From: Minisyncoccota bacterium
GTDB taxonomy: Bacteria > Patescibacteriota > Minisyncoccia > Phycocordibacterales > UBA9973
DNA: 64,000 nt
Direction of reading: 5' to 3'
NCBI GenBank assembly: GCA_031291825.1
Contig: JARLIG010000009.1
Coordinates: 65,281 to 129,280 of the forward strand
In this document: positions 13,533-47,886 of the stretch, one piece after another
Position numbering within the stretch: position 1 is the stretch's first letter
How the letters are laid out: every line of letters begins with the position of its first letter
Program-made: the position numbers and the translations under genes
The notes under the pieces: generated by a model
Databases searched by the model: none
What the model was told of the DNA's origin: nothing
What the model saw: the letters and a program-made list of their open reading frames with translations, nothing else

Positions 13533-13548
13533 ATTTTTATTCTTCTTG

Positions 13549-28956: not shown

Positions 28957-29032
28957 TTAATTTAATTACGAATTATTAATTACGGATTACGAATTGAATT
29001 TTAATTTGAAATTCTTAATTCGTAATTTCTAA
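28957..29032. repeat. AT-rich intergenic palindrome built from AATTACGAATT / AATTCGTAATT units (rpsE|rplO spacer)
   Basis: The same AATTCGTAATT(CGTAATT) unit recurs in the rplR|rpsE spacer 29616-29646 and the rpmC|rpsQ spacer 34323-34355. Confidence 0.6.
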
Positions 29033-29998: not shown

Positions 29999-30036
29999 TG
30001 AGACGTTGTACATCTTTTAGAGATGTCCAGCGTCTG
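29999..30036. repeat. REP-like palindrome of the GACGTTGGACATC family (rplF|rplR spacer)
   Basis: AGACGTTGTACATCT...AGATGTCCAGCGTCT. Related hairpins at 30594-30632, 33623-33668, 38634-38674 and 47841-47884. Confidence 0.55.
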
Positions 30037-30044
30037 GAAAATTT

Positions 30045-30578
30045 TTAGACAGTCTTCTTGCCTTGCTTACGTCTAATAACTTCGTCCTCATAACGCATAC
30101 CCTTTCCTTTATAAGGTTCTGGCTTTTTCAAAGCGCGGATGGCAGCTGTAAAACTTCCAACTAATTCTTTATCAATTCCGGAAATTGTGATGTTGTTTTT
30201 TTCAGCGGTAGCGGTGATGCCTTCTGGTATCTTTACGATGACTGGATGAGAAAATCCTAGAGCAAAATTAAAAACATTACCTTTGACTTCAGATTTAAAT
30301 CCGACACCTTCTAAAATTAATTTTTTCTGATAAGGCGTCTCAACTCCTTTAATCATATTTTTGATATGGGAAGCATAAGTACCCCAAAGAGACTTGGAAA
30401 ATTTATCGTTTCTCTTTATGTTTAAAGTAATCATCTTGTCAGCCACAGTGATAGCGATATCGTCTCGGAAAACTCTAGTGAGAGTTCCTTTTGGACCAAC
30501 CACTGTTAAAGAATTGCCACTTTGGGTGACCTTCACTCCTCCCGGTATTAAAATTTCTTGTTTTCCTATTCTTGACAT
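30045..30578 (-). CDS. rplF: 50S ribosomal protein L6
   Basis: [17 protein letters not shown]... two-domain L6. Confidence 0.9.
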
Positions 30579-30593
30579 AAATTTTTATTATTC

Positions 30594-30632
30594 CAGACGT
30601 TGGACACCCGTTCTGCGGATGTCCAACGTCTA
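30594..30632. repeat. REP-like perfect palindrome CAGACGTTGGACA-loop-TGTCCAACGTCT (rpsH|rplF spacer)
   Basis: 12-13-bp perfect stem. Confidence 0.6.
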
Positions 30633-30637
30633 TTGTT

Positions 30638-31024
30638 CTACCATACCCTAAACAACGCCTCGCCCCCAACTTGTTCTTTGCGAGCCACCTTACCTGATAA
30701 AATTCCTTTTGGTGTTGAAAGTACAAGTAAACCAGTGCCATTGCGGACAGAGTGAATATCTTTCATACCATAATAAACTCGGCGTGATTGCTTGGAGATT
30801 CTTTCAACTTCAGTTATTTTTGGCTTTTTGTCTGCATAAACCAATTTTACTTCCAAAACAGGAATACCCTTTTTTACTTTCTTGGTAACTTCAGAAAGGT
30901 AGCCTTCCTTTTTCAAACATTCACCAATAGCCAGCTTCATTTTTGAATATGGAAAACTCACAGACTCAAGACCTGCGAGACTACCGTTCTTCATTATTAT
31001 TATCATGTTTGAAATTGAATCCAT
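30638..31024 (-). CDS. rpsH: 30S ribosomal protein S8
   Basis: ISNMIIIMKNG...GECLKKEGYL S8 pattern. Confidence 0.85.
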   Translation of the reverse strand: MDSISNMIIIMKNGSLAGLESVSFPYSKMKLAIGECLKKEGYLSEVTKKVKKGIPVLEVKLVYADKKPKITEVERISKQSRRVYYGMKDIHSVRNGTGLLVLSTPKGILSGKVARKEQVGGEALFRVW

Positions 31025-31029
31025 AAAAT

Positions 31030-31215
31030 TTACCAGCTTGATTTACGAACACCCGGAAGCATTCCTTCATTTGCTAATTCTCGAAAACAAATACGGCAAA
31101 TACCAAAGTCACGCATAAAAGCGTTGCCTCTTCCGCAACGAAAACATCGATTTTTCTGTCGAGTAGAAAATTTTGGTGTCTTTAAAGCTCTTGCTTTGAC
31201 TGATGTTTTTGCCAT
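31030..31215 (-). CDS. rpsZ: 30S ribosomal protein S14 type Z (zinc-binding)
   Basis: 61 aa with [23 protein letters not shown] zinc ribbon. Confidence 0.85.
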
Positions 31216-31437
31216 CCCATTAAAAAAATTAAAATAATAAACTTACTGCTTCTTACAAGTCCACTGATTTTCTAACGGGACAAGTAAATAATTACTGGGA
31301 TTGCTTCGTTAATATCTCACTTTTTTTCTTTAAGTCTTTAAAAGTAAAGATTCAAAGGAGAAAAATGGATTAATCAAAGCCCTATTCCCTTGCGTAGAAT
31401 ACTAGCAGATTAAAAACAATTAGTCAAACATATGTAC

Positions 31438-31989
31438 TTATTTACATATATAAGCTGGAGTAGAAATTTTCCATGCCCAACTAGAGAAAGATGTACCACA
31501 CTGAGTAACGGCACCACCCTCCCTGGCGGGGTCAATAAAAGTAGGATATTGGGCATACATGGAATTAGTCCAGCCAACATCCGAGATGGCGAGATCTAGA
31601 AGAGCATAATCGGTGCCATTAGATTTATAGAGATAACAACTAGTACTATTAGTTGCGTTCATAGTAGGGTCAGCGGGAAAAGTAGGCATATACGTAGAAA
31701 CAAGACCTGGAATAACTGCATTAGCAGCAAAACTACCCCAAGAAGCACATTGACTTTGCGAAGCCCCCCCAGTTGTTGGATATACTCCATAGTCATCATA
31801 GTAATTTTCTAACGCTGTTTGAATTTCTCTCATATCAGACAATCTTCTTGCGATGTTGGCCTTGAGACGTGCAGCATTGACACTAGATAAAACAATCGTG
31901 GAAAGTAGCCCAATAATGGCAACCACCACCAAAAGTTCAATTAAAGTGAAACCTCGATGAGTATTTTTATATGCTTTTAATAACTTCAT
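31438..31989 (-). CDS. type IV pilin (prepilin with class III signal peptide)
   Basis: MKLLKAYKNTHRG|FTLIELLVVVAIIGLLSTIV: leader ending in Gly, Phe+1, Glu+5, hydrophobic N-terminal helix; start chosen at the internal Met of the longer ORF. Confidence 0.7.
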   Translation of the reverse strand: MKLLKAYKNTHRGFTLIELLVVVAIIGLLSTIVLSSVNAARLKANIARRLSDMREIQTALENYYDDYGVYPTTGGASQSQCASWGSFAANAVIPGLVSTYMPTFPADPTMNATNSTSCYLYKSNGTDYALLDLAISDVGWTNSMYAQYPTFIDPAREGGAVTQCGTSFSSWAWKISTPAYICK

Positions 31990-31990
31990 C

Positions 31991-32251
31991 TTAATGAGGA
32001 TAGGTTGGGTTATTTTGATTAGTCGACTGTACGTTATTTGACACATCAAAGTGAATAAATAAAACAATAGAAACGACGACAATTAATATTATAAGTCCAA
32101 ATAAAATCCATTCTGCTTTTCGTGGGTCTTTTACTAATCCACCTGAATTTTTCATAATAAATAATATCACTGCAGGGGCAGCTGTCTCATCGTACAGTTT
32201 AATGGCTTTATATTTTTTAGTATTATTGGGAATTGGTGGTTGGTCACTCAT
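31991..32251 (-). CDS. small C-terminally membrane-anchored protein, MSDQPPIPNN family (paralog 2)
   Basis: 86 aa; identical N-terminus MSDQPPIPNN and homologous C-terminal TM region (AEWILFGLIILIVVVSIVLFIHF) to 32313-32726; stop is 1 nt from the pilin ATG. Confidence 0.5.
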   Translation of the reverse strand: MSDQPPIPNNTKKYKAIKLYDETAAPAVILFIMKNSGGLVKDPRKAEWILFGLIILIVVVSIVLFIHFDVSNNVQSTNQNNPTYPH

Positions 32252-32312
32252 GGTTATATTATATCTAAAATTATTTTAATGACAAGCACTAGAAGTATAA
32301 AATTTGCAATTA

Positions 32313-32726
32313 TTACGGAAAGGTTGAGTCAATTTTACTAGTTGGTGGTACAGGATTTGGGAGATTGAAGTGAATAAATAAAAACACAGAAAAAGCAACC
32401 ATTAATATTACAAACCCTAAGAGTATCGATTCTGCTTGTCTTTGAGTTTTAACTGCGCCTCTGGATAATTTCATAACCATTTTAACCATTCCTGGAGTAG
32501 CTTTTTCTTGATAAGCTGAGATAGCAGCTTGAGCGGATGTCGCCGTTAAAATATCAGTGTCAAAGCTGACTCCATCTATATCATTTTTTCTTGGAATTTC
32601 TGGAATTTTTGTAGTTGAAGCAGAAACTGCTTGTAAAGATTGTCCAGTGTGATATTTACTAGCTTCAAATTCTTTAAGAGCTGCGTCTATTTCAGCGTTA
32701 TTAGGAATAGGTGGTTGATCACTCAT
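32313..32726 (-). CDS. small C-terminally membrane-anchored protein, MSDQPPIPNN family (paralog 1)
   Basis: 137 aa; AESILLGFVILMVAFSVFLFIHF C-terminal TM; upstream region duplicated with paralog 2 (TGCTTGTCATTA...TATAAT-N6-ATG). Confidence 0.5.
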   Translation of the reverse strand: MSDQPPIPNNAEIDAALKEFEASKYHTGQSLQAVSASTTKIPEIPRKNDIDGVSFDTDILTATSAQAAISAYQEKATPGMVKMVMKLSRGAVKTQRQAESILLGFVILMVAFSVFLFIHFNLPNPVPPTSKIDSTFP

Positions 32727-32775
32727 GATTCTATTATAAAGAAAATATATATAATGACAAGCAAAAATACCCCCA
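32727..32775 (-). promoter_or_regulatory. sigma70-like promoter TTGTCA-N16-TATAAT with the -10 ending 6 nt before the ATG (leaderless-type); duplicated at 32252-32300
   Basis: Gene-sense TGCTTGTCATTATATATATTTTCTTTATAATAGAATCATG and, for paralog 2, TGCTTGTCATTAAAATAATTTTAGATATAATATAACCATG. Confidence 0.5.
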
Positions 32776-32815
32776 AAGTAGGGAGTATTTTGAGTTTTAA
32801 TTATTTATTTAAGGC

Positions 32816-33385
32816 TTATTTTTTCTTTTCTTCTCCTTTTTTAAAAGGAACTCCGAGAATTTCAAAAAATGTTGTACCTTCTTTTTTGTTTTTAGCAGTT
32901 GAAACTAAGGTAATAGACATACCGAAAACATCGCGGATGTCCTCATCAGCTGTTTCTGGAAAAATTGTATGCTCTTTTATGCCAATAGTCAGATTGCCGA
33001 TATTATCGACAGCTGTGCGATTAATGCCTCGGAAGTCTTTGGTTCGAGGTAAGGCAACATTTACTAATTTTTCAATAAAAGCGTACATTCTCTTGCCACG
33101 CAATGTGACAACAATACCGACAGGGTCCCCTTGGCGAATCTTGAAGGATGAAATGGATTGCTTGGCACCTCGCAAAGCACCTTTTTGTCCAGTAATTTTT
33201 GCCAAACGGTCTGCAATAGCGTCATTCTTGTTTTTGTCTTTCTTCATCTGTGTGCCAGTGCCACTGTTAACCACTACTTTTTTTAGTCGTGGAGCTGCCA
33301 TCGCATTTTTGAAATGAAAAACTTCTTTCATCTTTGGAAATGCTTCTGTTTCTTTTTCTTTAATTGTTTTATGTGTTGTTGCCAT
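32816..33385 (-). CDS. rplE: 50S ribosomal protein L5
   Basis: Canonical L5 length and motifs (RLKKVVVNSGTG...). Confidence 0.9.
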   Translation of the reverse strand: MATTHKTIKEKETEAFPKMKEVFHFKNAMAAPRLKKVVVNSGTGTQMKKDKNKNDAIADRLAKITGQKGALRGAKQSISSFKIRQGDPVGIVVTLRGKRMYAFIEKLVNVALPRTKDFRGINRTAVDNIGNLTIGIKEHTIFPETADEDIRDVFGMSITLVSTAKNKKEGTTFFEILGVPFKKGEEKKK

Positions 33386-33390
33386 AATAT

Positions 33391-33609
33391 TTAATCTACC
33401 TTTTTAACATTGGAAACGTTGATTGGCATAGCTACACTCACCATTGTTCCCTTTTCTCCAGACTTTCTAGGGCGCTGATGTTTCTTCATCATGTTTAAAC
33501 CATCAATGATAACTTTGTTTTCTTTTACCAAAGCACGAACAACCTTGCCAGACTTTCCTTTGTCCTTACCGGTAATAACTTTTACATTGTCTCCTTTTTT
33601 TATTTTCAT
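33391..33609 (-). CDS. rplX: 50S ribosomal protein L24
   Basis: MKIKKGDNVKVITGKDKGKSGKV KOW motif. Confidence 0.8.
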   Translation of the reverse strand: MKIKKGDNVKVITGKDKGKSGKVVRALVKENKVIIDGLNMMKKHQRPRKSGEKGTMVSVAMPINVSNVKKVD

Positions 33610-33622
33610 ATACTTTGTTTTA

Positions 33623-33668
33623 TTCCAGATGTCGGTATTCTGCTTTAGCAGAAGCCTGACATCTGGAA
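33623..33668. repeat. REP-like long palindrome TTCCAGATGTCGG...CCTGACATCTGGAA (rplN|rplX spacer)
   Basis: ~14-bp outer stem plus inner palindrome TTCTGCTTTAGCAGAA. Confidence 0.55.
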
Positions 33669-33676
33669 TTAATTTT

Positions 33677-34048
33677 TTAAATCACTTCCTGCGCCAAAGA
33701 AATTATCTTTTGGAAACCCTTCTCCGCCAACTCTCTTGGTATTGGTCCGAAAACACGACCTGCCTTAGGGTCTTTCTTGCCTTTTTCTAAAATAACTACT
33801 GCGTTGTCATCAAAGCGGATATAGGAACCATCCTTTCGGCGATAAGCACCACGTGTGCGGACGACGACAGCTTGATGCACGTCTTTCTTTTTAACTGCTT
33901 TTCTGGGACTAGCTACTTTGACAGAAATGATGACCAACTCACCGAGTGTAGCATATCTCTTTTTAGAAGAGCCCAAAATCTTGAACACCTTTCCTACGGT
34001 GCCTCCGGCATTGTCTGTTATTTTTACTAAGGTTTCATTTTGAATCAT
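33677..34048 (-). CDS. rplN: 50S ribosomal protein L14
   Basis: MIQNETLVKITDNAG...canonical L14. Confidence 0.9.
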   Translation of the reverse strand: MIQNETLVKITDNAGGTVGKVFKILGSSKKRYATLGELVIISVKVASPRKAVKKKDVHQAVVVRTRGAYRRKDGSYIRFDDNAVVILEKGKKDPKAGRVFGPIPRELAEKGFQKIISLAQEVI

Positions 34049-34052
34049 AAAT

Positions 34053-34322
34053 TTATTCTTTGGAAATTACTTTAAATCTCTTATCTTTAGAAATTGGTTT
34101 GGTTTCGACAATTTCTACGGTATCCCCTATTTTATAAACATTCCCTTCGTCATGCGCCTTGTATTTCTTGCTGACTTTATAAAACTTTCCATAAAGTGGG
34201 TGCTTCACAAACCTGGAAACCGACACGACGACAGTCTTGTCCATCTTGTCTGAAGTGACTACCCCCTTTAAGGTTTTTCCTTTGACCTCTTCGGTATTCT
34301 CTTTTTTTATTTTTGTTTTCAT
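34053..34322 (-). CDS. rpsQ: 30S ribosomal protein S17
   Basis: [18 protein letters not shown]...[16 protein letters not shown]17 OB fold. Confidence 0.85.
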
Positions 34323-34353
34323 AAATTCGTAATTCGTAATTTTTAATCCGTAA

Positions 34354-34548
34354 TTATTTTTTATTTAATTCGGTCATTGCTCTGGCAATTTGTTTTTTTA
34401 AAATGGTGGACTCTTTTACATTCTTTGATCTTGAACCTTCCGCTTTAAAATGAATCACACGCAAAGCTTCCCTTAAGGACACTAATTCCTTTTTGAGTTC
34501 TGCCTCTTTCATCTCTTTAAAATTTACTTTGGTATTTTTCTTTGCCAT
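34354..34548 (-). CDS. rpmC: 50S ribosomal protein L29
   Basis: 64 aa, [18 protein letters not shown]29 pattern. Confidence 0.8.
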
Positions 34549-34559
34549 ATATTTAAATA

Positions 34560-34988
34560 TTATTGCTTATGCGCTCGGGAAATAATTCTGGTCTTAAGTG
34601 GAAGCTTGGTTCCAGCTTTGCGTAATGCCTCACGAGCAACTTTTTCTTCCGCTCCATCAACTTCAAAAATAATTCTACCTGGTAAAACATCAAAACAATA
34701 TCCTTGTGGGTCACCCTTACCCTTTCCCATGCCTACCTCAGCCGCTTTAGCTGTATAAGGACGGTCTGGAAAAACACGAATCCAATATTTTCCAGTTTTA
34801 GTTAAGGTTCGAGAAATAACTTTTCGAGCAGCTTCAAGTTGGTTTGATTTTACGCGTGATTGAGATTCAGACTTCAAGCCGAAAGAACCGAAGGCAAGCT
34901 TGGTGCCACGAGTATCTGGATTTCGAGACTTGGGATTATTGCGTCCAGTCTGCCACTTTCTAAATTTTACTTTTTTCGGTACTAACAT
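34560..34988 (-). CDS. rplP: 50S ribosomal protein L16
   Basis: MLVPKKVKFRKWQTGR...canonical L16. Confidence 0.9.
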   Translation of the reverse strand: MLVPKKVKFRKWQTGRNNPKSRNPDTRGTKLAFGSFGLKSESQSRVKSNQLEAARKVISRTLTKTGKYWIRVFPDRPYTAKAAEVGMGKGKGDPQGYCFDVLPGRIIFEVDGAEEKVAREALRKAGTKLPLKTRIISRAHKQ

Positions 34989-34991
34989 AAA

Positions 34992-35717: not shown

Positions 35718-35718
35718 T

Positions 35719-36120: not shown

Positions 36121-36152
36121 GATAATTAATTATTTATAGTGAGTATATAGAA

Positions 36153-36500: not shown

Positions 36501-36525
36501 AATAAAAAGCTCCTAACGAGCTTGG

Positions 36526-36557
36526 ATTTATACTAACAAATAAGGAAAAATTGTCAA
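36526..36557 (-). promoter_or_regulatory. strong sigma70-type promoter (TTGACA...TATAAAT) plus SD AGGAG driving rpsS immediately downstream of the island
   Basis: Gene-sense GTTGACAATTTTTCCTTATTTGTTAGTATAAATCCAAGCTCGTTAGGAGCTTTTTATTATG. Confidence 0.5.
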
Positions 36558-36629
36558 CTAGATTTTTAAAAACCATTATGTTAAAAAGCTCAAATCAAAA
36601 AACTACTTTTTTGGTTTAAATAAAAATAC

Positions 36630-36657
36630 GGGACTAGCAAAATTAGCTGCTAGTCCC
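36630..36657 (-). terminator. intrinsic terminator GGGACTAGCAGCTAATTTTGCTAGTCCC plus U-run (minus strand)
   Basis: Perfect 8-bp stem followed by GTATTTTTATTT in gene sense; preceded by a second GC-rich hairpin at ~36790-36830. Confidence 0.55.
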
Positions 36658-36844
36658 GTTGCTTTGGATGTGTAGAAGGATTCTCAGTTCTTCTACCGCA
36701 TGAGATAGCTCTACGGTGGAGACCAATCCAAAAGAACTATCCTGCTCGAAATATAGTATACAGAAAAAAATAAAGCAAATAAAAATCGCCCAGAAATACT
36801 GATGGCCGGCTCCGCGTGTTACGCGAAACCGGCCGTGTTGATGG

Positions 36845-37093
36845 TTACTTTTTGGTTCCTGCGATAACGCACAGGACCCCGAATCCAATCCCTATTGTCG
36901 CGATAATTCCGCGCGAAAGTAAGAGTTGCGTGCCAACGTGATGGTCAGGTCCCATCTGAATGAATACGTCGGCGAAGTGTGTGCCGGCGATGAGCGAGAC
37001 GATTCCAACGTACGGGCAAACTTTGTCCCAAACCCTATCCCAAAAATCGGTCTGGTTCTCGTTGGCGTTTTCGTCCAAAAATTCAAGAGGCAT
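36845..37093 (-). CDS. island sORF g6: small two-TM membrane protein (82 aa)
   Basis: SD GGAG 8 nt before ATG (ACGGAGAACAAGATG); MPLEFLDENANENQTDFWDRVWDKVCPYVGIVSLIAGTHF...GIIATIGIGFGVLCVIAGTKK. Confidence 0.35.
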   Translation of the reverse strand: MPLEFLDENANENQTDFWDRVWDKVCPYVGIVSLIAGTHFADVFIQMGPDHHVGTQLLLSRGIIATIGIGFGVLCVIAGTKK

Positions 37094-37142
37094 CTTGTTC
37101 TCCGTGTTTCTCGCGCACATCTGTACGCGTGTTGATTGCCGG

Positions 37143-37331
37143 TTAGTCGTGGCGATGACGTGATAAATACCATACACCAAAGGGAAGAACGATCGCAGAA
37201 ATCACTCGTAACCACATCTCGGAGCTAGGTCCAAAAACCAGAATTAACCCGGCAACGATGACTAACGTGAAAACGATCCCCGCTTGCGCTCCCTCATTCG
37301 TAGTATCTACATCTTGCCGCTGAGTTTGCAT
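37143..37331 (-). CDS. island sORF g5: small membrane protein (62 aa)
   Basis: SD AAGGAG 8 nt before ATG; own promoter TTGACT-N17-TATGTT (plus 37353-37381); two hydrophobic helices. Confidence 0.4.
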   Translation of the reverse strand: MQTQRQDVDTTNEGAQAGIVFTLVIVAGLILVFGPSSEMWLRVISAIVLPFGVWYLSRHRHD

Positions 37332-37393
37332 GGAATGTACTCCTTCCCCTATAACATATCACATAATATCCTAAAAGTCAAGTAAAAATTGGG

Positions 37394-37432
37394 CAAAAAA
37401 AACGGGCTTCCGGTGTGAACACAGAAGCCCGT
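37394..37432 (-). terminator. canonical intrinsic terminator ACGGGCTTCTGTGTTCACACCGGAAGCCCGUUUUUUUU (minus strand)
   Basis: 9-bp GC stem followed by eight T in gene sense. Confidence 0.6.
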
Positions 37433-37439
37433 TGGGAGA

Positions 37440-37560
37440 ATGGTGCAAATGGCGCAATCCATCCCCTGATAGGTGGTATCAAGGGAGCCAATGGGGCTAC
37501 AACCATCAAGGCATAGTCATTGAAGGGAGCCACCTCCTCAATACCACCGTCCGATAATAT
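37440..37560 (-). ncRNA. candidate small structured RNA (~160 nt transcript ending at the 37394-37432 terminator)
   Basis: No SD-led ORF. Long-range pairing GGUGGUAU...AUACCACC enclosing repeated GGGAGCCA boxes; between a promoter-like box (TTGTAT-N16-TATATT) and a canonical terminator. Confidence 0.25.
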
Positions 37561-37617
37561 AACATACTTATAAAAAAATACAAGTCCAGATAATAAAATT
37601 TGGGTAAACAAGGTAAT

Positions 37618-37646
37618 GGGGTTCGCCGACAGAATCGACGAACCCC
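37618..37646. repeat. GC-rich hairpin GGGGTTCGCCGACAGAATCGACGAACCCC (copy A); identical copy B at 37992-38020
   Basis: 29-nt direct repeat, 12-bp stem; each directly follows the stop codon of a minus-strand sORF. Confidence 0.7.
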
Positions 37647-37657
37647 ATTTTGAAGCC

Positions 37658-37837
37658 TTAGTAGCAGCCTCGATTGTCGTAGCGTATGAGCGCAGGACGC
37701 TCACGCGGAGCACGCACTGCAAGTTTGACGGCTTCGTACCCATCATCTGAGGAGTGAGCAACGAATGGCTCACCGCGACGGTAAGTAGAAGCGGAAACAA
37801 CGGTAAGTGTTTGCGGTACTTTTGTGTTCTTCTTCAT
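37658..37837 (-). CDS. island sORF g3 (59 aa, hydrophilic)
   Basis: SD AGGA 7 nt before ATG (CAGAGGACTTGAGATG); MKKNTKVPQTLTVVSASTYRRGEPFVAHSSDDGYEAVKLAVRAPRERPALIRYDNRGCY; stop abuts hairpin A. Confidence 0.35.
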   Translation of the reverse strand: MKKNTKVPQTLTVVSASTYRRGEPFVAHSSDDGYEAVKLAVRAPRERPALIRYDNRGCY

Positions 37838-37942
37838 CTCAAGTCCTCTGTGTGGATAGGTTGGCTTCCCATCCTCTGCTGTGAACATTGACATTGTGCT
37901 CTGCTTACATTGGACAAACAAAGCAGGAACTTCTTATCTTTA

Positions 37943-37970
37943 TTTATACCACTTAAAATAATTAACACAA
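37943..37970 (-). promoter_or_regulatory. island promoter box B: TTGTGTTAATTATTTTAAGTGGTATAAAT (minus strand)
   Basis: TTGTGT-N16-TATAAA; same box at 38311-38336 (TTGTGTTATTTTAATTAAGTGTTATAAC) and 38586-38612 (TTGTGTTATTTTGAAAAAGTGGTATAAA). Confidence 0.5.
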
Positions 37971-38034
37971 GGGGAAAGTAAACATGAAGATGGGGTTCGC
38001 CGACAGAATCGACGAACCCCAAATTTGATATCTG

Positions 38035-38244
38035 CTACACCCGATACATCAATCTGTCTCCCCTCTCTGCTGACAGAGGAGACGCGACCACCTTCGGCTC
38101 AACACCACGCCGTGCGTCGTCGAATGCCTTCGACAAACCTCCAGGCTGTTCTCCTTCTTGCCGAGATTGGTTGTATTTCAAAAGAGACTGCTTTGAAGAC
38201 TGGTTGCTCTGATGTCTTGATCCTGAAGCGCTTGATTTGCTCAT
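38035..38244 (-). CDS. island sORF g2 (69 aa, Ser/Gln-rich hydrophilic)
   Basis: SD AAGGAG 6 nt before ATG; MSKSSASGSRHQSNQSSKQSLLKYNQSRQEGEQPGG...; stop abuts hairpin B. Confidence 0.4.
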   Translation of the reverse strand: MSKSSASGSRHQSNQSSKQSLLKYNQSRQEGEQPGGLSKAFDDARRGVEPKVVASPLSAERGDRLMYRV

Positions 38245-38310
38245 CGTTTCTCCTTGAGGGGTTGTGTTTGTTAAACAACTTAAACTAAAAAGGTGCATAT
38301 CTTTTTTAGT

Positions 38311-38336
38311 TATAACACTTAATTAAAATAACACAA
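38311..38336 (-). promoter_or_regulatory. island promoter box C
   Basis: TTGTGTTATTTTAATTAAGTGTTATAAC ~60 nt upstream of the g2 SD. Confidence 0.45.
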
Positions 38337-38367
38337 GGTAAAATTTTTAAATTGAGTAGACATAGCG

Positions 38368-38393
38368 AGGGCGCCGAGTTGGTCTCGGCGCCC
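38368..38393. repeat. GC-rich perfect hairpin GGGCGCCGAG-TTGGTC-CTCGGCGCCC
   Basis: 10-bp perfect stem directly after the g1 stop. Confidence 0.6.
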
Positions 38394-38407
38394 TTGAATC
38401 TTAAATC

Positions 38408-38545
38408 TCATTCTTTGTCGTCGAAACGCCGACGGCGGCGCGGCTGACGGTTGCGAGGACGGTTTGGCAACTGCTGCGCGTTACGGGTAACCGCTCTGGT
38501 AACCCACTTCGGAGCTGATAGCTCCGCACGACGAGTTCTCGTCAT
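38408..38545 (-). CDS. island sORF g1 (45 aa, extremely Arg-rich)
   Basis: Hand-translated: SD GGAG 7 nt before ATG; MTRTRRAELSAPKWVTRAVTRNAQQLPNRPRNRQPRRRRRFDDKE-TGA. Not in the ORF track (shorter than 60 aa). Confidence 0.35.
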   Translation of the reverse strand: MTRTRRAELSAPKWVTRAVTRNAQQLPNRPRNRQPRRRRRFDDKE

Positions 38546-38585
38546 CTTTTTTCTCCAAATGGAAAAATGAACATCTATGGAGATA

Positions 38586-38612
38586 TTTATACCACTTTTT
38601 CAAAATAACACA
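38586..38612 (-). promoter_or_regulatory. island promoter box D
   Basis: TTGTGTTATTTTGAAAAAGTGGTATAAA ~40 nt upstream of the g1 ATG. Confidence 0.45.
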
Positions 38613-38633
38613 ATAGCAAAAGTGTATAAAGCA

Positions 38634-38674
38634 AAAGACGTCGGACATCTGTTGCTACAGGTGTCCGACGTCTT
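38634..38674. repeat. REP-like perfect palindrome AAGACGTCGGACA-loop-TGTCCGACGTCTT immediately after the rplB stop
   Basis: 13-bp perfect stem; member of the GACGTyGGACA family. Confidence 0.6.
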
Positions 38675-38695
38675 TTGCTTAAGTATTTTTATTTT

Positions 38696-39535
38696 TTATT
38701 TATTCTTCCCAGTCTTACGGCGAGAAACGATAAACACATTAGAGTATTTCTTTGGACCACGAGTTTTGCGTCCACCAGTAACCTTACCCCACATGGTCTT
38801 AGGACGTTTGGTTCCGCGACCTTGGCGGCCCTCACCTCCTCCGTATGGATGGTCAACTGGATTCATCGCCGTGCCTCGAACAGTTGGACGAATTCCTTTC
38901 CAACGACTGCGTCCAGCTTTACCATAATTTTCCAAATGATGTTCTTCATTAGAAACAGTACCGACACACGCCCAACATTTTTCATTTATTTTTCTGATTT
39001 CCGTTGAAGGCATTTTCAAGTTTGTATATCCATCAGCATTTGCGACAACTTGTGCAAAGATTCCTGCAGAACGTCCAATCTTCGCACCACCCATTGGCTT
39101 AATTTCAACATTATAAACAAATGTTCCAACTGGAATAAACTGCAAAGGTAAACGATTGCCTGGCTTCAATTCTGCTTTCTCGGAAACGATAAATGAATCA
39201 CCAGGCTTTACAGACTTTGGCAAAACCACATATCTTTTTTCTCCGTCCTTGTAAACAGCAAGTCCAATGAAGGCTGAACGATTTGGGTCATATTCAACAG
39301 ATGTAATTTTTGCAGGAATATCTTTTTTGTTGTAAATAAAATCAACTTCGCGGAAAAGACGCTTATGACCAGAACCTTTGTGTCGCATCGTGATACGACC
39401 TTGACTGTTGCGGCCGACAGCGCGCTTGAAACCATAAGTGAGCGACTTGGTTGGTGTCGTCTTCGTCAAGACACCACGGTAAGTCACGTTGGTCATCTGT
39501 CTTCTTGATTTACTTGTTGGTTTGTATGTTTTCAT
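38696..39535 (-). CDS. rplB: 50S ribosomal protein L2
   Basis: 279 aa, canonical L2 (GRNSQGRITMRHKGSGHKR, MNPVDHPYGGGEG). Confidence 0.9.
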   Translation of the reverse strand: MKTYKPTSKSRRQMTNVTYRGVLTKTTPTKSLTYGFKRAVGRNSQGRITMRHKGSGHKRLFREVDFIYNKKDIPAKITSVEYDPNRSAFIGLAVYKDGEKRYVVLPKSVKPGDSFIVSEKAELKPGNRLPLQFIPVGTFVYNVEIKPMGGAKIGRSAGIFAQVVANADGYTNLKMPSTEIRKINEKCWACVGTVSNEEHHLENYGKAGRSRWKGIRPTVRGTAMNPVDHPYGGGEGRQGRGTKRPKTMWGKVTGGRKTRGPKKYSNVFIVSRRKTGKNK

Positions 39536-39538
39536 ATA

Positions 39539-39808: not shown

Positions 39809-39813
39809 AAAAT

Positions 39814-40485: not shown

Positions 40486-40486
40486 A

Positions 40487-41101: not shown

Positions 41102-41105
41102 AAAA

Positions 41106-41537
41106 TTACATCATCTTAACGTCAATATCGACTCCGGAAGGCAAAGTTAAATTAGTCAGAGCCTCCACGGTCTTTGCATTTGGATTTATTATGTCAATCA
41201 ATCGCTTGTGCACTCTTATCTCAAATTGTTCTCGTGTGTTTTTGTAAATAAAAGCGGAACGATTAACGGTATATTTTTTTATTTCAGTCGGTAATGGAAC
41301 CGGACCGACAATATTTGCATCGTAACGGGTAGCAGTATCCATGATTTGTTTAACAGAAGCATCCAAAATCTTACTCTCGTAAGCACGAACTCGGATACGA
41401 AGCACAATTTTTCCATCTGTTGCAGTCTTCTCTTTTTTAAGAGAGGCCTTGGTAGTTTTAGCTACCTTTGCAACCTTTGGTGTAGTAGCTTTCACCGTCT
41501 TTGGCTTTTTTATTTTTGTTTCTGTTTCTGTTGTCAT
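41106..41537 (-). CDS. rpsJ: 30S ribosomal protein S10 (with Lys/Thr-rich N-terminal extension)
   Basis: C-terminal ~100 aa is canonical S10 (IRIRVRAYESKILD...HKRLIDI). Confidence 0.85.
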   Translation of the reverse strand: MTTETETKIKKPKTVKATTPKVAKVAKTTKASLKKEKTATDGKIVLRIRVRAYESKILDASVKQIMDTATRYDANIVGPVPLPTEIKKYTVNRSAFIYKNTREQFEIRVHKRLIDIINPNAKTVEALTNLTLPSGVDIDVKMM

Positions 41538-41571
41538 GAATTTATTTTAAAGTACAAATCTACCCTATAAA

Positions 41572-42765: not shown

Positions 42766-42949
42766 AATTTTATTGATTACTAACCAAAACTCAGTGTACG
42801 AGAACCAGTCACTAAGGCTTAGTTACTAATGATAATTAATAAACTTTAATAATAAAAAACCAATATAAAAACTGCAGAAAGTGCAGTTATCAAGATAATA
42901 GCAGATTAGAAAATATTGTCAAACTACCTTGTTGTGATAAACTAAACAG

Positions 42950-43621
42950 ATGAATATGGAATCTAAAGAACCTAAAAATACACCAGAAAAACCGAAAGTC
43001 ACAGACGAGAGAAGTGAGCTCCTCGCAGAAGTATTTAAAAGGTATCATAAAGATTTGATTAAATGGTGTATCGCTAGACTAAACAAGCTAACAATAAAAG
43101 GTAGTCGTATCTCTAATAATCTAAAAAGTGATGCGGAAGAAATCGTCGCGGATGTCTATAAAGTATTATTGACTGATAAAAATCCCATAGACCTAAATCG
43201 TACTGATGCTGAAATAGGAAAATTTTTAAATATTGTCTTAGATCAAGCAGTTATTCATTATGTTAGAAAAATCACAGCTCAGAAAAGATTTCCTAGGGGT
43301 GGTTTCGTGTCGACCGAAGAAATAACTGAGGAAAATGACGAGGAAGAATTGCTTGAAAAACTTAAAGAGTATTTTACTCAAAAGACAGACGACACAATAG
43401 AAGATGGGCGGTGGCCTATGATAAAAGATGCTTTGGTGGAATTAGAAAAACAAGATAAACAACAAGTGGACATGATTAGAGCTTTGTATCAAGAAGGACA
43501 TACCTTGGAAGAAATAGGAAAAAGTTATGGTTTTTCAAGAGAAAATGCAAGACAAAGAATTAAAAGGGGTCTTAATAAGATAAAATATCATATTATTCAA
43601 TACAAAAAACCGCTCAGTTGA
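42950..43621 (+). CDS. sigma-70 family (ECF-like) RNA polymerase sigma factor, between tuf and fusA on the opposite strand
   Basis: Region-2-like LAEVFKRYHKDLIKWC and region-4 HTH LEEIGKSYGFSRENARQRIKRGLNKI; promoter-like TTGTCA-N16-TAAACT upstream. Confidence 0.5.
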   Translation: MNMESKEPKNTPEKPKVTDERSELLAEVFKRYHKDLIKWCIARLNKLTIKGSRISNNLKSDAEEIVADVYKVLLTDKNPIDLNRTDAEIGKFLNIVLDQAVIHYVRKITAQKRFPRGGFVSTEEITEENDEEELLEKLKEYFTQKTDDTIEDGRWPMIKDALVELEKQDKQQVDMIRALYQEGHTLEEIGKSYGFSRENARQRIKRGLNKIKYHIIQYKKPLS

Positions 43622-43626
43622 GCGGT
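43609..43626. terminator. bidirectional terminator AAAAAACCGCTCAGTTGAGCGGTTTTTT shared by the sigma gene and fusA
   Basis: 7-bp GC stem with A-run and T-run. Confidence 0.6.
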
Positions 43627-43646
43627 TTTTTGTATTTAGTCTATTT

Positions 43647-45797
43647 TTATTTTCTAGCAGCGATGATGGTTTCAGCCACGTTGTTTGGCACGATATCGTA
43701 ACGGAAGAATTCCATTGTGAAACCTGCGCGGCCTTCAGTCATCGAACGTAGGCCGGTCATGTAACCGAACATTTCTGAAAGAGGAACCACAGCTTTGATA
43801 ACTTTGTTCATTCCACGGTCTTCCATGCCTTCAATCAGTCCACGCTTAGAGGAAAGATTTCCAGTAACGTCTCCCATGAATTTATCTGGAGTAACAACTT
43901 CCACTTTCATCATCGGCTCAAGAATCACAGGGCCAGCTCGACGACAAGCGTCTTGGATAGCCATGCTAGCGGCGATTTTGAAAGCCATTTCGTTCGAGTC
44001 AACTTCGTGATAACTTCCATCCCATAAATCTACAGAAACATTGACGATTTTGAATCCAGCTAAAATTCCTCGGTCCAAACCTTCTTTGAATCCTTTTTCA
44101 CAAGGAGCAATATATTCTTGTGGAATAACACCTCCTTTGATACTATTCACAAATTCGAAACCTTCCGAACGCTTGGTATTCTTTGGTAAATCTTCTACTT
44201 CTTCCTTGGTCAGCATTTCCATCGGCTTAACTTTAATCTTTACGTGTCCATAGTTTCCACGTCCGCCAGATTGCTTGATATATTTTCCTTCAGCATCAGA
44301 AGTGCCGGTAATTGTTTCGCGATAAGCCACTTGTGGTTTACCAACATTTGCCTCAACGGTAAATTCTCGTTTCATACGGTCCACAATAATTTCCAAATGT
44401 AATTCTCCCATTCCGGCGATAATCGTCTCCCCTGTTTCTTGGTCGGTCGAAACTCGGAAAGTCGGGTCTTCTTGCGCCAAACGATTGAGCGCCATTCCCA
44501 TTTTTTCTTGGTCTGCTTTTGTCTTTGGTTCGATGCGAAGTTGAATAACTGGCTCTGGAAAAACAATACGGTTTAATTCAATAGGATTTTCTTCGTCACA
44601 AATAGTGTCAGAAGTAATCGTATCTTTTAATCCGACAGCGGCGGCGATTTCTCCAGCAAAAACTTCTTTCACTTCTTCTCTATCATTCGCATGCATGCGC
44701 AAGATACGTCCAATACGTTCCTTGTTGCGAGTACGAGGATTATAAACATAACTTCCAGCTGATAAAGTTCCAGAGTAAACGCGGAAGAAGATAATTTGTC
44801 CGACGAATGGATCTGTTGCGACCTTGAAAGCTAGCGCGGCAAATGGTTCAGAGTCGGAAGCATGACGAACCATCGGCTCATCAGTATCTGGATTAATTCC
44901 TGGAATTGGTGGAATATCTAAGGGTGATGGCAAATAATCGACAACACCATCAAGTACTAACTGAACGCCTTTGTTCTTTAATGCACTACCAGCATAAACT
45001 GGAAAAATTTCATTATTAATAACTGCCTTACGAAGAGTCTTTTTCAAAACATCTAGATTTGGAACAATGCCTTCTAAGTATTCAGTCATCATGGTATCAT
45101 CGGTTTCAACTATTTTTTCAATAAGTTCTCCGTGGTATTTTTCCGCTTCTGCTTTTAAGTTTTCAGGAATTTCTTTTTCTACAACCTTATTACCCATTTC
45201 ACCTTCAAAGTAATATGCCTTCATGCGAAGCAAGTCAATCACACCTTCGTGCTGTTCTTCTTGCCCAATTGGGATTTGCATTCTGACCGCTTTTTTTGTC
45301 AGACGATCTAATATCGTAGCAAAAGAATGTTCAAAGGATGCACCAGTGCGGTCTAATTTATTTATAAAACAAATACGAGGAACTTTCGCTTCGTCCGCAT
45401 AGCGCCAGTTGGTTTCGGATTGCGGTTCTACGCCAGCAACTCCGTCAAAAACAACCACGGCACCATCGAGCACGCGAAGAGAACGCTTCACTTCTACAGT
45501 AAAGTCAATGTGTCCAGGTGTATCGATGATATTAAAACGGTGTTTTTTAGATTTATCTTTTATGTCTGCATACGTCGGAGTCCAGAAACAAGTCACTGCC
45601 GCAGAAGTAATGGTGATACCTCGCTCTCGTTCTTGCTCCATCCAATCGGTCGTCGTCTCTCCATCATGCACTTCTCCGATTTTGTGTGATACGCCAGTGT
45701 AAAAAAGCACACGTTCGGTCGTAGTTGTCTTGCCGGCATCAATGTGCGCAATAATTCCAATGTTTCTGACTTTTTCTAACGGATAATCTCGTTCCAT
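43647..45797 (-). CDS. fusA: elongation factor G
   Basis: 716 aa with [21 protein letters not shown] motifs. Confidence 0.95.
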
Positions 45798-45898
45798 AAA
45801 TTAAATCTAACTAATTAAATATTAAAAAAGCGCAGGGTGCGCTTACCGACAATATATAACATAAAACTATTTTTTGCAAATACGTTTTTTCTAAAAAA

Positions 45899-47209
45899 TT
45901 ATTTATTTAATACCGCGCGAGTCATTGCTCCAGCCACTCCATCACCCTTTAATCCATTGGCAATTTGAAACTTACTGAGAGCGATTTGAGTCTTTAATCC
46001 AAACTTACCATCAGCTGTTCCAACACTATAACCAGCATTATTTAAAAATGTTTGTAACTCCACAACTTCATTTCCCGAAGAACCTCTCTTGAGTAATTGA
46101 GTAAATTGAAAAGACGTTGTTGTGGTGGATGTTGGAGTAGTGGTATTACTGTTGCAAGGCAAGCCAGTGGTAACACTAAAACTATTTGTTCCAAGACAAC
46201 CAGGGAGTGGAGCTGTGGGAGTTCCAGTTGGAGTCGTTGCGGGTGTGGTAGTTGGAGTAGTGGTAGGAGTAACGACTGGAGCTGGCATAGTCATCGCACC
46301 AGCGCTGGTAGATTGAGGTGATGTATCCCCCGTAGCATCATAGGATGCTACAGTGAAAGAATATATTGTTCCAGGGGTAAGTGAAGTTACTGTGTAATAA
46401 GTATTTGCGGTAGTTCCAATTTGAGCTCCAGCTTGATAAACATCATAGCCCGTAATTCCAAAACTATCAGTGGGAGCAGTCCAAGTTAAATCAATTTGAG
46501 AAGATGATACTGGAGTCGCTTGCAAGGATGCTGGAGATAGCGGAATTGTTGTGGCTAATGTGGTAGAACCTGGAGTAGTTACACTGACTGGAGTTGATTG
46601 TCCTGAATTATTTCCGAGTGTATCGCGAGCATCAACAGTAAAATAATAAGTCGTAGAAGCCAGCAAGCCATTTATATTGTAATAAGTATTTGTCGTTGTG
46701 CCTATCTGCACTCCGTTTTGAAAAATATCATAACCAGCTATGGCGATACTACTAGTTGACGCCGTCCAAGATAAACTATATTGAGATGGTGAAATGGTGT
46801 TGATGGTTAAAGTAGGTACAGTGGGAGGTAAAAGAACTGTAGTGGTTGCACTAGCGCTTGTTGATTGTCCTGATGTGTTTCCAGCTGCATCATAAGCTGA
46901 AACAGTAAAAGAATAAGTAGTTGACGCACTTAAACCAGAAACATAATAGGAATTGTTTGTGGTCGTTGTAATCTCATTTCCATTTTCATATACATTGTAT
47001 CCAGCAACTCCCGTGTCATCCGTCGAAGCCATCCAAGACAGATTTACTTGCGAAGAAGAAACTGGAATCGCAATAAGTTGTGTTGGAGTTGTTGGAGGAG
47101 TCGTGTCGGCTCCAGCGAAAACATTACGGTTTCCAAGTATACTAAAAGAAACAATTAGCATTAAAGCAAAAAGCTTTTGCAAATTTATTTTTGATATCAT
47201 ATTAAACAT
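45899..47209 (-). CDS. secreted protein with three fibronectin-III-like repeats, Thr/Pro linker and C-terminal peptidoglycan-binding (PG_binding_1-like) domain
   Basis: Signal peptide; thrice-repeated ~90-aa unit (PVSSSQ..L.W.A.TD..G..GY.VY..G..IGTT.N..Y...L...T.Y.F.V.A.D..GN.S.QS); C-terminus GSSGNEVVELQTFLNNAGY...GKFGLKTQIALSKFQ. Confidence 0.6.
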   Translation of the reverse strand: MFNMISKINLQKLFALMLIVSFSILGNRNVFAGADTTPPTTPTQLIAIPVSSSQVNLSWMASTDDTGVAGYNVYENGNEITTTTNNSYYVSGLSASTTYSFTVSAYDAAGNTSGQSTSASATTTVLLPPTVPTLTINTISPSQYSLSWTASTSSIAIAGYDIFQNGVQIGTTTNTYYNINGLLASTTYYFTVDARDTLGNNSGQSTPVSVTTPGSTTLATTIPLSPASLQATPVSSSQIDLTWTAPTDSFGITGYDVYQAGAQIGTTANTYYTVTSLTPGTIYSFTVASYDATGDTSPQSTSAGAMTMPAPVVTPTTTPTTTPATTPTGTPTAPLPGCLGTNSFSVTTGLPCNSNTTTPTSTTTTSFQFTQLLKRGSSGNEVVELQTFLNNAGYSVGTADGKFGLKTQIALSKFQIANGLKGDGVAGAMTRAVLNK

Positions 47210-47245
47210 ATTTTACCATTAGCGATGTATTTTTAGCAAACAAAA

Positions 47246-47506
47246 CTATTTATAAATTTCATGACCTCCAATGTCGGCAAACAAGACTTCATTTTTAGAA
47301 ATGAAGCGAAAAGCTATCCTAAATTTATAGTTTACTGAAAAACCAAAATATTCCTTGAATTTACCATGGAGCTTATGAACTTCTAAAGTTTCATGATTTG
47401 TTCTATCTTTAAATAAATCAATTTTGTCTAAAACATCCTTCTGTAGACCATTCTCCAGTTTTTTAAATTTGCGGACAAAAAATGGAGAATAAATAATTTC
47501 AATCAT
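47246..47506 (-). CDS. type II toxin, RelE/ParE superfamily
   Basis: 86 aa; C-terminus YKFRIAFRFISKNEVLFADIGGHEIYK matches the RelE/ParE core; directly downstream of the RHH antitoxin. Confidence 0.6.
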   Translation of the reverse strand: MIEIIYSPFFVRKFKKLENGLQKDVLDKIDLFKDRTNHETLEVHKLHGKFKEYFGFSVNYKFRIAFRFISKNEVLFADIGGHEIYK

Positions 47507-47510
47507 TTTA

Positions 47511-47729
47511 TTAGAATTTTTTTGCTAATTCTCTCAGGTCTCCTCTTAGGCCTTTCCCTTCTGCAATTTCTCTTTCTGATTGAAGAATATTCTGAACTGC
47601 TTCGTTTTCTTGATATTCTCTTAAGGCACGTCGAACAACATCAGCTTTGTTCGCGCCTTTTCCGTCCTTAATCATTCTTTCTATGAATTTTTCCAAGTCC
47701 CCCGAAATGGGTACAGATAATGTGGTCAT
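47511..47729 (-). CDS. ribbon-helix-helix antitoxin (ParD-like)
   Basis: 72 aa; MTTLSVPISGDLEKFIERMIKDGKGANKADVVRRALREY matches ParD/RHH. Confidence 0.55.
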   Translation of the reverse strand: MTTLSVPISGDLEKFIERMIKDGKGANKADVVRRALREYQENEAVQNILQSEREIAEGKGLRGDLRELAKKF

Positions 47730-47804
47730 GTTTTTTATAAATTATATGATAATGTAATATTATAATATCATATAGTGAAGAAAAAGTGAAGTCAAGATAA
47801 ACAA

Positions 47805-47826
47805 AAAATCCCTTTGGGGATTTTTA
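47805..47826. terminator. intrinsic terminator AAAAATCCCTTTGGGGATTTTT downstream of rpsG
   Basis: GC hairpin plus T-run; followed by REP-like palindrome 47841-47884. Confidence 0.55.
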
Positions 47827-47886
47827 AAATAAAAAGTTTATTCTAGATGTTGGACATCTGCAAAGCAGGTGTACAACATCAGAAAA

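Follow-up and report, generated by a model that had tools for sequence, protein, structure and literature searches.

Repetitive extragenic palindromic (REP) sequences and the REP-associated tyrosine transposases (RAYTs) that accompany them have, to our knowledge, been studied almost entirely in Proteobacteria, and the status of the systems that they form is debated, since they are regarded either as parasites or as beneficial, vertically inherited 'replicators'. A REPIN is an inverted doublet of REP units that forms one hairpin (PMC3116915). In the REPIN/RAYT systems of Pseudomonas fluorescens and Escherichia coli (PMC3116915, PMC5581495), the inverted units are separated by a short spacer, doublets greatly outnumber singlets, most copies occupy co-directional or convergent extragenic space near the 3' ends of genes, inverted copies of the same REP flank the Y1/HUH gene, RAYT lineages pair with their own REP families, and orthologous copies persist between related genomes. 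The system described here is alike in these respects, but its host is an ultra-small bacterium of the candidate phyla radiation (CPR)/Paceibacteria. The window that we analysed, 64,000 nt of contig JARLIG010000009.1 (positions 65,281 to 129,280), contains the str, S10 and spc operons on its minus strand, and five palindromes occur among their ribosomal protein (r-protein) genes. These palindromes are members of a dispersed REP-doublet (REPIN-like) family, which is most probably copied by a RAYT-type Y1 transposase encoded in the same genome. REPIN–RAYT systems are already known as a kind, and they are apparently undescribed so far in this bacterial group: we found no literature linking RAYT or REPINs with CPR bacteria or Patescibacteria, even though annotation pipelines label the transposase.

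The five palindromes (copies 1–5; positions in Table 1) lie where a sequence-only reading of the window had placed them. When they were folded as transcribed RNA, none of 200 shuffled sequences was as stable as the real hairpin in any of the five cases. The folding energies were -13.3 kcal/mol for copy 1 (z -4.1 relative to the shuffles), the arms of which contain two mismatches, -29.4 kcal/mol for copy 2 (z -8.1), -27.9 kcal/mol for copy 3 (z -7.9), -37.4 kcal/mol for copy 4 (z -11.5), and -18.9 kcal/mol for copy 5 (z -5.3). The stems had been described as 12–14 bp long; they are in fact 14–24 bp, with the outer AGAC/GTCT and some flanking bases pairing too, and the stem of copy 4 reaches 24 bp. 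The arm AGAYGTYGGACAYC, which had been thought to be shared, in this form or as close variants, by all five, is common to four of them. The exception is copy 3, which represents a diverged subfamily, AGATGTCGGTATTCTGC...GCAGAAGCCTGACATCT; its stem is interrupted by a 3x3 internal bubble, a conserved asymmetric TAT/AGC, and it has only its ends and the CTGC/GCAG inner stem in common with the main family. The arm motif GACGTYGGACAYC, allowing up to two mismatches, gave 11 matches in the window against 1.76 expected, a number that none of 100 shuffles reached, and 8 of the 11 matches were paired arms of four elements. Outside the five hairpins, no extra copies, single arms or collapsed units were found in the 64 kb.

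Each arm is itself a near-palindromic 15-nt unit, AGAYGT-YSR-ACRTCT (AGACGT-YSR-ACGTCT in the window's family), and the complete element consists of two such units in inverted orientation with a spacer of 5–13 nt between them, amounting to 34–46 nt in total. Being inverted doublets of a short unit around a short spacer, the hairpins fit the definition of REPINs (PMC3116915). They differ from those of P. fluorescens and E. coli in the near-perfect palindromy of the unit, in the lengths of spacer and element, and in having no GTAG tag. In the sampled loci, which comprised 1.2 Mb of Paceibacteria DNA, 88 REP units stood in doublets as compared with 9 singlets; exact arms were paired in 93 cases and unpaired in 12, where 9 unpaired arms were expected by chance. 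Covariation of the arms had been put forward as a check on the family, and in 66 distinct copies the arms did co-vary without mismatches: position 6 was C-G in 51 copies and T-A in 15, position 9 was T-A in 35 and C-G in 31, and positions 3–16 were paired in at least 53 of the 66.

The observation that single arms occur at chance level only, the repeated entity always being the palindrome, also bears on the possibility that the palindromes serve as sites for proteins that bind double-stranded DNA, i.e. as an uptake signal, an operator, or a nucleoid or gyrase binding site. CPR bacteria are believed to depend on the uptake of DNA, and the core of the element is conserved across species in which the proteins that contain it are only 65–70% identical (the trigger-factor insert, see below), both of which would suit such a role. 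However, the elements are much sparser than known uptake sequences, and the association with a hairpin-binding Y1 transposase accounts for the conservation. The idea of an uptake sequence was dropped on the basis of the chance-level single arms, and we regard a role as a double-stranded protein site in general as scarcely credible.

Di Nocera et al. (2013, PMC3733652) described GTAG- and CGTC-tagged REP superfamilies, which are likewise short palindromes near upstream stop codons, with CGTC at the end of the element and with occasional intragenic, translated copies, including some in uvr and tRNA-modification genes. The CGTC families have an unpaired tag at one end, stems of 8–9 bp with A-T first pairs, loops of 4–5 nt and a CCA tail, and they were reported without a dedicated transposase (PMC3733652). 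In the present elements, GACG/CGTC is paired at both ends, the stems are at least 14 bp long, and a RAYT is present; membership in the CGTC-tagged REPs was considered and rejected on the grounds of the paired tag and the stem length. As to MITEs (miniature transposable elements with inverted repeats), the elements here form one short hairpin, no target-site duplication was discerned when empty and filled sites were compared, and the linked enzyme is of the Y1 and not the DDE type. Rickettsia palindromic elements, of about 100–150 bp, have no linked transposase, whereas the short REP doublets examined here are accompanied by a RAYT.

The RAYT was found through a precomputed Pfam label beside a glycerate-kinase gene, and its homologues were then collected by tblastn; a crude HUH...Y regular expression run over the 1.2 Mb missed the transposase and thus gave a false negative. 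The protein (P0259, accession MDR3519412.1) is a 221-aa Y1_Tnp protein from the same accession block as the RplF of the window, which is 100% identical to MDR3519673.1 ('Candidatus Pacebacteria bacterium'). It scored 26.4 bits against Pfam Y1_Tnp (cut-off 23). Its AlphaFold model had a mean pLDDT of 81.9, and the best fold matches of the model in the PDB, as found by Foldseek, were IS608 TnpA (2a6m, E 9e-5) and the complex of an E. coli RAYT with a REP hairpin (4er8, E 2e-4), each at a probability of 1.00. The HUH (NPNHFHF) and tyrosine (YVNxN) motifs are invariant across the homologues, some of which are labelled 'REP element-mobilizing transposase RayT' in JGI and in some NCBI records. Its length of approximately 220 aa, its helical extension at the C-terminus and its score below the NCBIfam cut-off (see below) set the protein apart from the RAYTs of P. 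fluorescens and E. coli.

The gene of this RAYT is flanked by REPs in the organism itself. The protein encoded by L142, a Logan contig of the same sample series, is identical to P0259 in 220 of 221 residues (99.5%); CAGACGTCCAACGTCTG lies upstream of the gene, CCAGACGTTGGAC and then the doublet TGACGTTGTACACCCGCAAGGCGGATGTCCAACGTCGG directly past its stop codon, and a third element further on. The doublet immediately 3' of the gene belongs to the same subfamily as copy 2 of the window (inner stem CCG...CGG). The same arrangement with AGACGT-YSR-ACGTCT was seen in L091 and L140, and other pairs of REP and RAYT were present in L063/L038 (CAGATAGAG..CTCTATCTG), L044 (CCAGAAGCCTTGC) and L138 (GTGAGAGC..GCTCTCAC). 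Each RAYT homologue had on either side, inverted, the palindrome family of the same locus or of the spacers of relatives; the REPs of L063 and L044 had further copies elsewhere in the same locus, and no locus set contained more than one homologue. The C-terminus of several homologues reads ...DVQRL or ...DVGRL, the flanking REP in translation. The option of a 'REP/MITE-like selfish repeat', one of several left by the sequence-only reading, thus proved to be the right one as regards the REPs, given the inverted 15-nt units and a REP-flanked RAYT-like Y1 transposase in the same metagenome-assembled genome (MAG).

A DnaA-box-like sequence, GGTTTATCCACA, was observed directly beside REP units (L142 18-32; L140 3878-3892 and 4725-4735; L114, L096 and L137 1940-1953). 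Some of these sequences lie upstream of RAYT genes and others next to dispersed copies; close to the RAYT, a CTTCATGAAG palindrome and a box resembling a -10 element come after the sequence. In the window, the GGTTTATCCACA tail was not above chance.

Palindromes might also spread without a transposase, by replication slippage, template switching or gene conversion, in the manner of the GC-rich hairpin clusters of AT-rich mitochondrial genomes, with the Y1 gene as a mere target or frequent neighbour. Organelles are known to contain hairpin elements that lack transposases (PMC2800124), and spread of this type would be in keeping with the nested-palindrome arms, with the collapsed single units found where relatives have doublets (L137 1940-1975 as compared with L096 6305) and with the failure to see a target-site signature; perfect symmetry of the arms would also be expected from intrastrand correction. 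On the other hand, each of four different RAYT lineages has its own palindrome family, inverted, on either side, which is the defining arrangement of REP–RAYT systems, and subfamily markers (a shared T-G mismatch, shared loops) have been copied between unlinked sites. We consider a transposase-independent origin improbable.

We used a comparison set of 80 metagenomic loci around rplF homologues together with several closer relatives. The lengths of the operon junctions were bimodal across approximately 80 relatives, being either 4–15 nt or 30–80 nt. In three loci in which RplF is 95% identical to that of the window (L134-L136), the rplF–rplR spacer is 5 nt (TAA-AAATT-ATG) and the rpsH–rplF spacer 13 nt, as compared with 59 nt at both junctions in the window. 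The hairpins are therefore insertions, and the suggestion that they had enlarged spacers from below 15 nt to 50–70 nt was borne out. When empty and filled sites were aligned, the inserts were 46 and 54 nt long, which exceeds the length of the hairpins, and they had an A-rich 3' tail. In the enlarged spacers of other relatives, sequence-unrelated palindrome families or AT-rich repeats were found.

The junctions of close relatives also differ in which element they carry and in its orientation. In L130 (CAWHSF01, RplF 93% identical), the rpsH–rplF spacer is 4 nt, and the element at rplF–rplR is nearly identical to the copy that the window has at rpsH–rplF. Another locus with 95% identical RplF, L132, has a different subfamily, AGAYGTCGGTATCCTGCAGGGCAGGAGCCCGACRTCT, at three junctions, and its rplN–rplX element is in the orientation opposite to that of copy 3. 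Copy 3 is kept in L134, and L130 has a main-family hairpin in its place. Copies 4 and 5 have orthologues in CAWHSF01, after rplB (L117/L130) and after rpsG (L112), respectively; the latter orthologue has the same T/C mismatch as copy 5 and one compensatory change. At both sites the arms are conserved or compensatorily changed, while the flanks have diverged.

Some further observations concern the spacers of these operons. The public L18 call of L130 (10547-10936, 129 aa) starts at an ATG within the REPIN (AGATGTTGGACATC...), i.e. it has been read through the hairpin. AT-rich repeats of the GTAGAAAGTTATAAAG type and repeats of the TAGGTTCTAG type occur in r-protein spacers of L004-L083 (L037 1232-1269, L028 1464-1504, L008 9969-10000 and others), and many of the rpsH–rplF spacers in the same loci contain a conserved element of about 30 nt, TTCGACAAGCTCACTATAAATAAT, often beside a TAG stop codon. 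The rpsE–rplO spacer of the window (28957-29034) contains AT-rich inverted and direct repeats of the ATTACGAATT type, which resemble the rpsH–rplF spacer of L070 and represent a different small spacer-filling repeat.

For the distribution of the family beyond the window, GTDB was searched, with one genome for each species, for exact matches to the pattern. This gave 46 loci, of which about 33 were in MAGs of Paceibacterota, Nomurabacteria or other CPR bacteria; the non-CPR matches, in GC-rich actinobacterial or other genomes, are probably due to chance. The family had been called genome-specific, but it is present in about 30 other Paceibacteria, Nomurabacteria or CPR MAGs, and at least 10 copies with the exact pattern occur in CAWHSF01, the closest relative. 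A scan of IMG/VR for the doublet pattern gave 0 matches, so there is no link to phages. The organism of the window has at least five further copies on two other contigs, those with the RAYT and glycerate-kinase genes. The glycerate-kinase gene (L137; MDR3519292.1, of the same accession block and SRA series as the RplF of the window) contains two tandem in-frame copies, and a collapsed unit follows the gene. The statement that the palindromes occupy r-protein spacers thus holds for all five copies of the window and not for the family, which is also found at these two genes, at unrelated genes and within open reading frames (ORFs).

The 66 distinct copies included 36 in co-directional intergenic space, 20 in ORFs (by crude ORF calling), 5 in convergent and 2 in divergent positions, and 29 of the 36 co-directional copies start 0–13 nt past the upstream stop codon. 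Genes next to copies include aspartokinase–asd, tuf–rpsJ, rpoB, rplL, yidD–yidC, ligA, map, bipA, yceG, TGT, an EamA transporter and others. There was no bias towards the sense strand, as the G-U-compatible strand was sense in 12 cases and antisense in 9, and copies of the subfamily with the loop CAAGAWTCCCAG occur in both orientations relative to transcription (7 to 3).

The invasion of the S10, spc and str operons and the many in-frame copies in essential genes are further differences from the REPIN/RAYT systems of P. fluorescens and E. coli. Since the element contains no stop codon in any frame, it can be read in frame, and copies of this type were found in the genes for MurE, UvrC, Dus, ScpA, trigger factor and glycerate 2-kinase, all of them confirmed by Pfam; intragenic REPs are known from other systems (PMC3733652). 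The translated arms read DVGH...MSDV/VSNV or TSDI...MSDV. In trigger factor, copies were present in four species at one shared site. The inter-domain linker of glycerate kinase is an insertion hot spot, where 'empty' forms of 424 aa coexist with forms filled by DVGHLLKQVSNV (the window's family) or by DVGILQGRSPTS (of the L132 subfamily, as the DNA sequence confirmed), as well as with a form that has a longer GFSQVLGSPGPYPGQT insert of unconfirmed origin. The glycerate-kinase alignment showed clean empty and filled forms, whereas the alignments of MurE and Dus with PDB sequences showed extra residues at the insert without a clean 12-aa gap.

The trigger factors that carry the element (L095, L118, L126 and L127) are 65–71% identical and have the exact-pattern palindrome at the same in-frame linker position. 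The nucleotides of this element are better conserved than the neighbouring coding sequence.

Terminators or attenuators of the Rho-independent type that subdivide the r-protein operons would also appear as stable GC-rich hairpins directly past genes. Two copies have a context that could be read in this way: on the mRNA strand, UUUUGCUUU comes after copy 4, and an island of small ORFs with promoters after that, and copy 5 lies at the end of the str unit. However, a terminator scan flagged none of the five hairpins, while it did flag canonical terminators, including that which lies 16 nt downstream of copy 5. The partial UUUUGCUUU of copy 4 is absorbed into its extended stem, three copies stand between essential co-transcribed r-protein genes, and the same element is tolerated in frame in essential ORFs. 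The hairpins were rejected as terminators, in agreement with the earlier remark that they have no U-tracts, and we regard such a role as very improbable.

A conserved cis-regulator of r-protein synthesis, of the leader type in Rfam, was rejected as well: no Rfam family matches the hairpins, and the elements are absent in relatives with 95% identity. At the gathering score, Rfam recognised only tRNA and tmRNA and nothing at the hairpins, and at E <= 1 there were sub-threshold matches to generic (miRNA-like) hairpins at copy 4 only.

Several findings weigh against copying by the RAYT or against its sufficiency as an explanation. First, P0259 scored 30 bits against the curated RAYT equivalog NCBIfam NF047646 (REP_Tyr_transpos), for which the cut-off is 80 bits; by this score P0259 belongs to a clade distant from the characterised RAYTs. 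Searches of PDB sequences with the RAYT or its profile gave nothing significant. Second, what connects the RAYT with the movement of the elements is their association, no clean target-site duplication or target motif was seen between empty and filled sites, and the copy number is modest (about 10 or more in the approximately 67 kb sampled from this organism). Third, all five copies of the window lie in r-protein clusters, for which the post-hoc P is approximately 0.005. Among the relatives, GC-rich hairpins recurred at certain junctions, namely rplB–rpsS (9/31), rplN–rplX (6/43), rpsN–rpsH (9/71), rpsH–rplF (11/82) and rplF–rplR (12/82), and were never found at rplV–rpsC, rpsC–rplP, rpsQ–rplN, rplX–rplE, rplR–rpsE (0/75) or rpsE–rplO (0/64), as counted with a detector (at least 11 bp, at most 1 mismatch) that misses two of the window's own copies. 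That the same junctions were repeatedly hit by unrelated families, and others never, is not predicted by purely neutral spread and may reflect selection or insertion bias.

It might therefore be asked whether the hairpins are exapted RNA elements that serve the host as barriers to 3' exonucleases, as RNase III sites, or in tuning translation near stop codons and uncoupling cistrons. This explanation is compatible with an origin as REPINs; function, and not selfish spread, would then explain their presence in r-protein operons. Besides the clustering of the five copies and the recurrence of unrelated palindrome families at the same junctions in different lineages, with other junctions always empty, it would account for the retention of the copies after rplB, after rpsG and at rplN–rplX, with conserved or compensated arms and diverged flanks, between the window and the relative with 93% identical RplF, for the position of 29 of 36 copies within 13 nt of a stop codon, and for the finding that about one-third of the intergenic copies elsewhere follow genes of translation or transcription (tuf–rpsJ, rpoB, rplL, rpsG, rplB, rplF). 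It does not sit well with the absence of two of the five copies in relatives with 95% identity, with the occurrence of both orientations and the lack of a G-U bias towards the sense strand (12 and 9), or with the same elements within ORFs and after unrelated genes, and the hot spots may equally mark junctions that tolerate a loss of translational coupling. We consider it a doubtful, though not a negligible, explanation. The clustering and the junction hot spots are compatible both with selective permissiveness and with a modest benefit to the host.

Stable hairpins at the 3' ends of cistrons within operons, mostly within 15 nt of the stop codon, are a feature shared with the REPs and bacterial interspersed mosaic elements (BIMEs) of E. 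coli, which act as mRNA stabilisers and modulators of translation. E. coli REPs stabilise upstream mRNA, and Liang, Rudd and Deutscher are said to have reported in 2015 that REPs up to about 15 nt past the stop codon lower translation of the upstream gene. We know of no E. coli REPs inside the S10 and spc operons.

Returning to copying by the RAYT, the enzyme would be expected, by analogy with IS200/IS605 and RAYT enzymes (PMC5581495; 4er8, 2a6m), to recognise and cut REP hairpins (AGACGTYSRACGTCT) on single-stranded DNA and thereby copy or move the doublets. The whole doublet is predicted to fold as a hairpin of 14–24 bp in single-stranded DNA or RNA. Selection would leave copies only at sites where they do little harm. 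One type of tolerated site may be found in co-directional operons, a few bases past a stop codon and with no fewer than about 9–15 unstructured A-rich bases before the next start, and another in the surface linkers of proteins, where the copy would be read in frame. The copies in the S10, spc and str operons would be passengers that are transcribed as stable stem-loops. Termination–reinitiation coupling is very probably broken at rpsH–rplF, rplF–rplR and rplN–rplX, junctions that were formerly 4–13 nt, and the copies in r-protein operons may shield the upstream mRNA from 3' exonucleases or slow down terminating ribosomes. Any such effect on r-protein mRNA, whether stabilisation or lost translational coupling, would be a consequence of insertion: since the elements are absent in relatives with 95% identity, occur in both orientations, show no G-U bias and are tolerated in coding sequence, action as RNase III/E sites or mRNA stabilisers is a possible side effect and not the reason for their existence.

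CPR genomes are smaller than 1 Mb and have little room for junk, and yet the elements are present in the most conserved operons and in essential proteins, which bears on the debate on parasitism and benefit. REPIN–RAYT systems are perhaps pervasive in the streamlined CPR/Paceibacteria as several co-evolving pairs. Their persistence in genomes shorn of nearly everything dispensable, their invasion of the S10, spc and str operons, their in-frame translation in essential proteins and the repeated occupation of the same few junctions by unrelated palindrome families would, taken together, imply a host function, e.g. in r-protein stoichiometry through stop-proximal hairpins, and not mere tolerance. 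We put this forward tentatively and do not expect it to be the likelier outcome. The hairpins also account for odd long spacers and over-extended ORF calls, such as that of L18 in L130, and for length polymorphisms of 12–25 aa in CPR proteins, and they could be used as lineage markers for MAGs.

Table 1. Hairpins, flanking r-protein genes and the terminator downstream of copy 5 in the 64,000-nt window.
Feature	Position	Strand	Remarks
rplR	29644-29985	-	ORF and Pfam label on identical locus L001-L003
REP doublet, copy 1	29999-30036	-	rplF–rplR spacer; about 9 nt past rplF stop, 13 nt short of rplR start
rplF	30045-30578	-	ORF and Pfam label on identical locus L001-L003
REP doublet, copy 2	30594-30632	-	rpsH–rplF spacer; 6 nt past rpsH stop, 15 nt short of rplF start
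rpsH	30638-31024	-	ORF and Pfam label on identical locus L001-L003
rplX	33391-33609	-	flanks copy 3; ORF and Pfam label
Diverged-subfamily hairpin, copy 3	33619-33672 (core 33623-33668)	-	rplN–rplX spacer
rplN	33677-34048	-	flanks copy 3; ORF and Pfam label
REP doublet, copy 4	38629-38680 (core 38634-38674)	-	15-21 nt past rplB stop
rplB	38696-39535	-	upstream of copy 4; L117 orthologue matches Pfam L2
Canonical intrinsic terminator	47804-47825	-	AAAAATCCCCAAAGGGATTTTT and U-tract; downstream of copy 5; model of real terminators in this genome
REP doublet, copy 5	47841-47884	-	2 nt past rpsG stop; upstream of canonical terminator
rpsG	47887-48357	-	upstream of copy 5

The operons of the window are interrupted at several places by other genes. 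A 2.2-kb island between rplB and rpsS (36501-38695) contains 4–5 small ORFs, several sequences that resemble promoters (TTGTGT-N17-TATAAT) and a terminator hairpin in duplicate (37615-37649 and 37991-38021). Neither a Pfam family nor a transposase was found among the small ORFs of this island or those beside the copies. The rplB–rpsS junction measured 66–2823 nt in every relative sampled. In a 1.6-kb insert between rplE and rpsN (31216-32815), one gene is for a pilin-like protein that has a methylation motif at its N-terminus (31438-32082), and the other ORFs are unknown; in relatives, this junction was always at least 106 nt and often 1–2.8 kb. The region between rpsG and fusA is interrupted by a toxin–antitoxin pair of RHH/ParD-like and HigB/RelE-like proteins (47246-47729, weak Pfam matches) and a fibronectin-III/peptidoglycan-binding protein (45899-47209). 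A sigma-70 region-4/ECF-like gene lies on the opposite strand between fusA and tuf (42950-43621, plus strand) and is delimited by a bidirectional terminator (43582-43653).

With regard to the translation genes themselves, L15 (28645-28956) is short, at 103 aa, and there is no L30 gene between rpsE and rplO. ARAGORN identified a tRNA-Ile with the anticodon UAU (13548-13622, minus strand), which is uncommon in bacteria, and S10 (41106-41537) has an N-terminal Lys/Thr-rich extension of approximately 40 aa.

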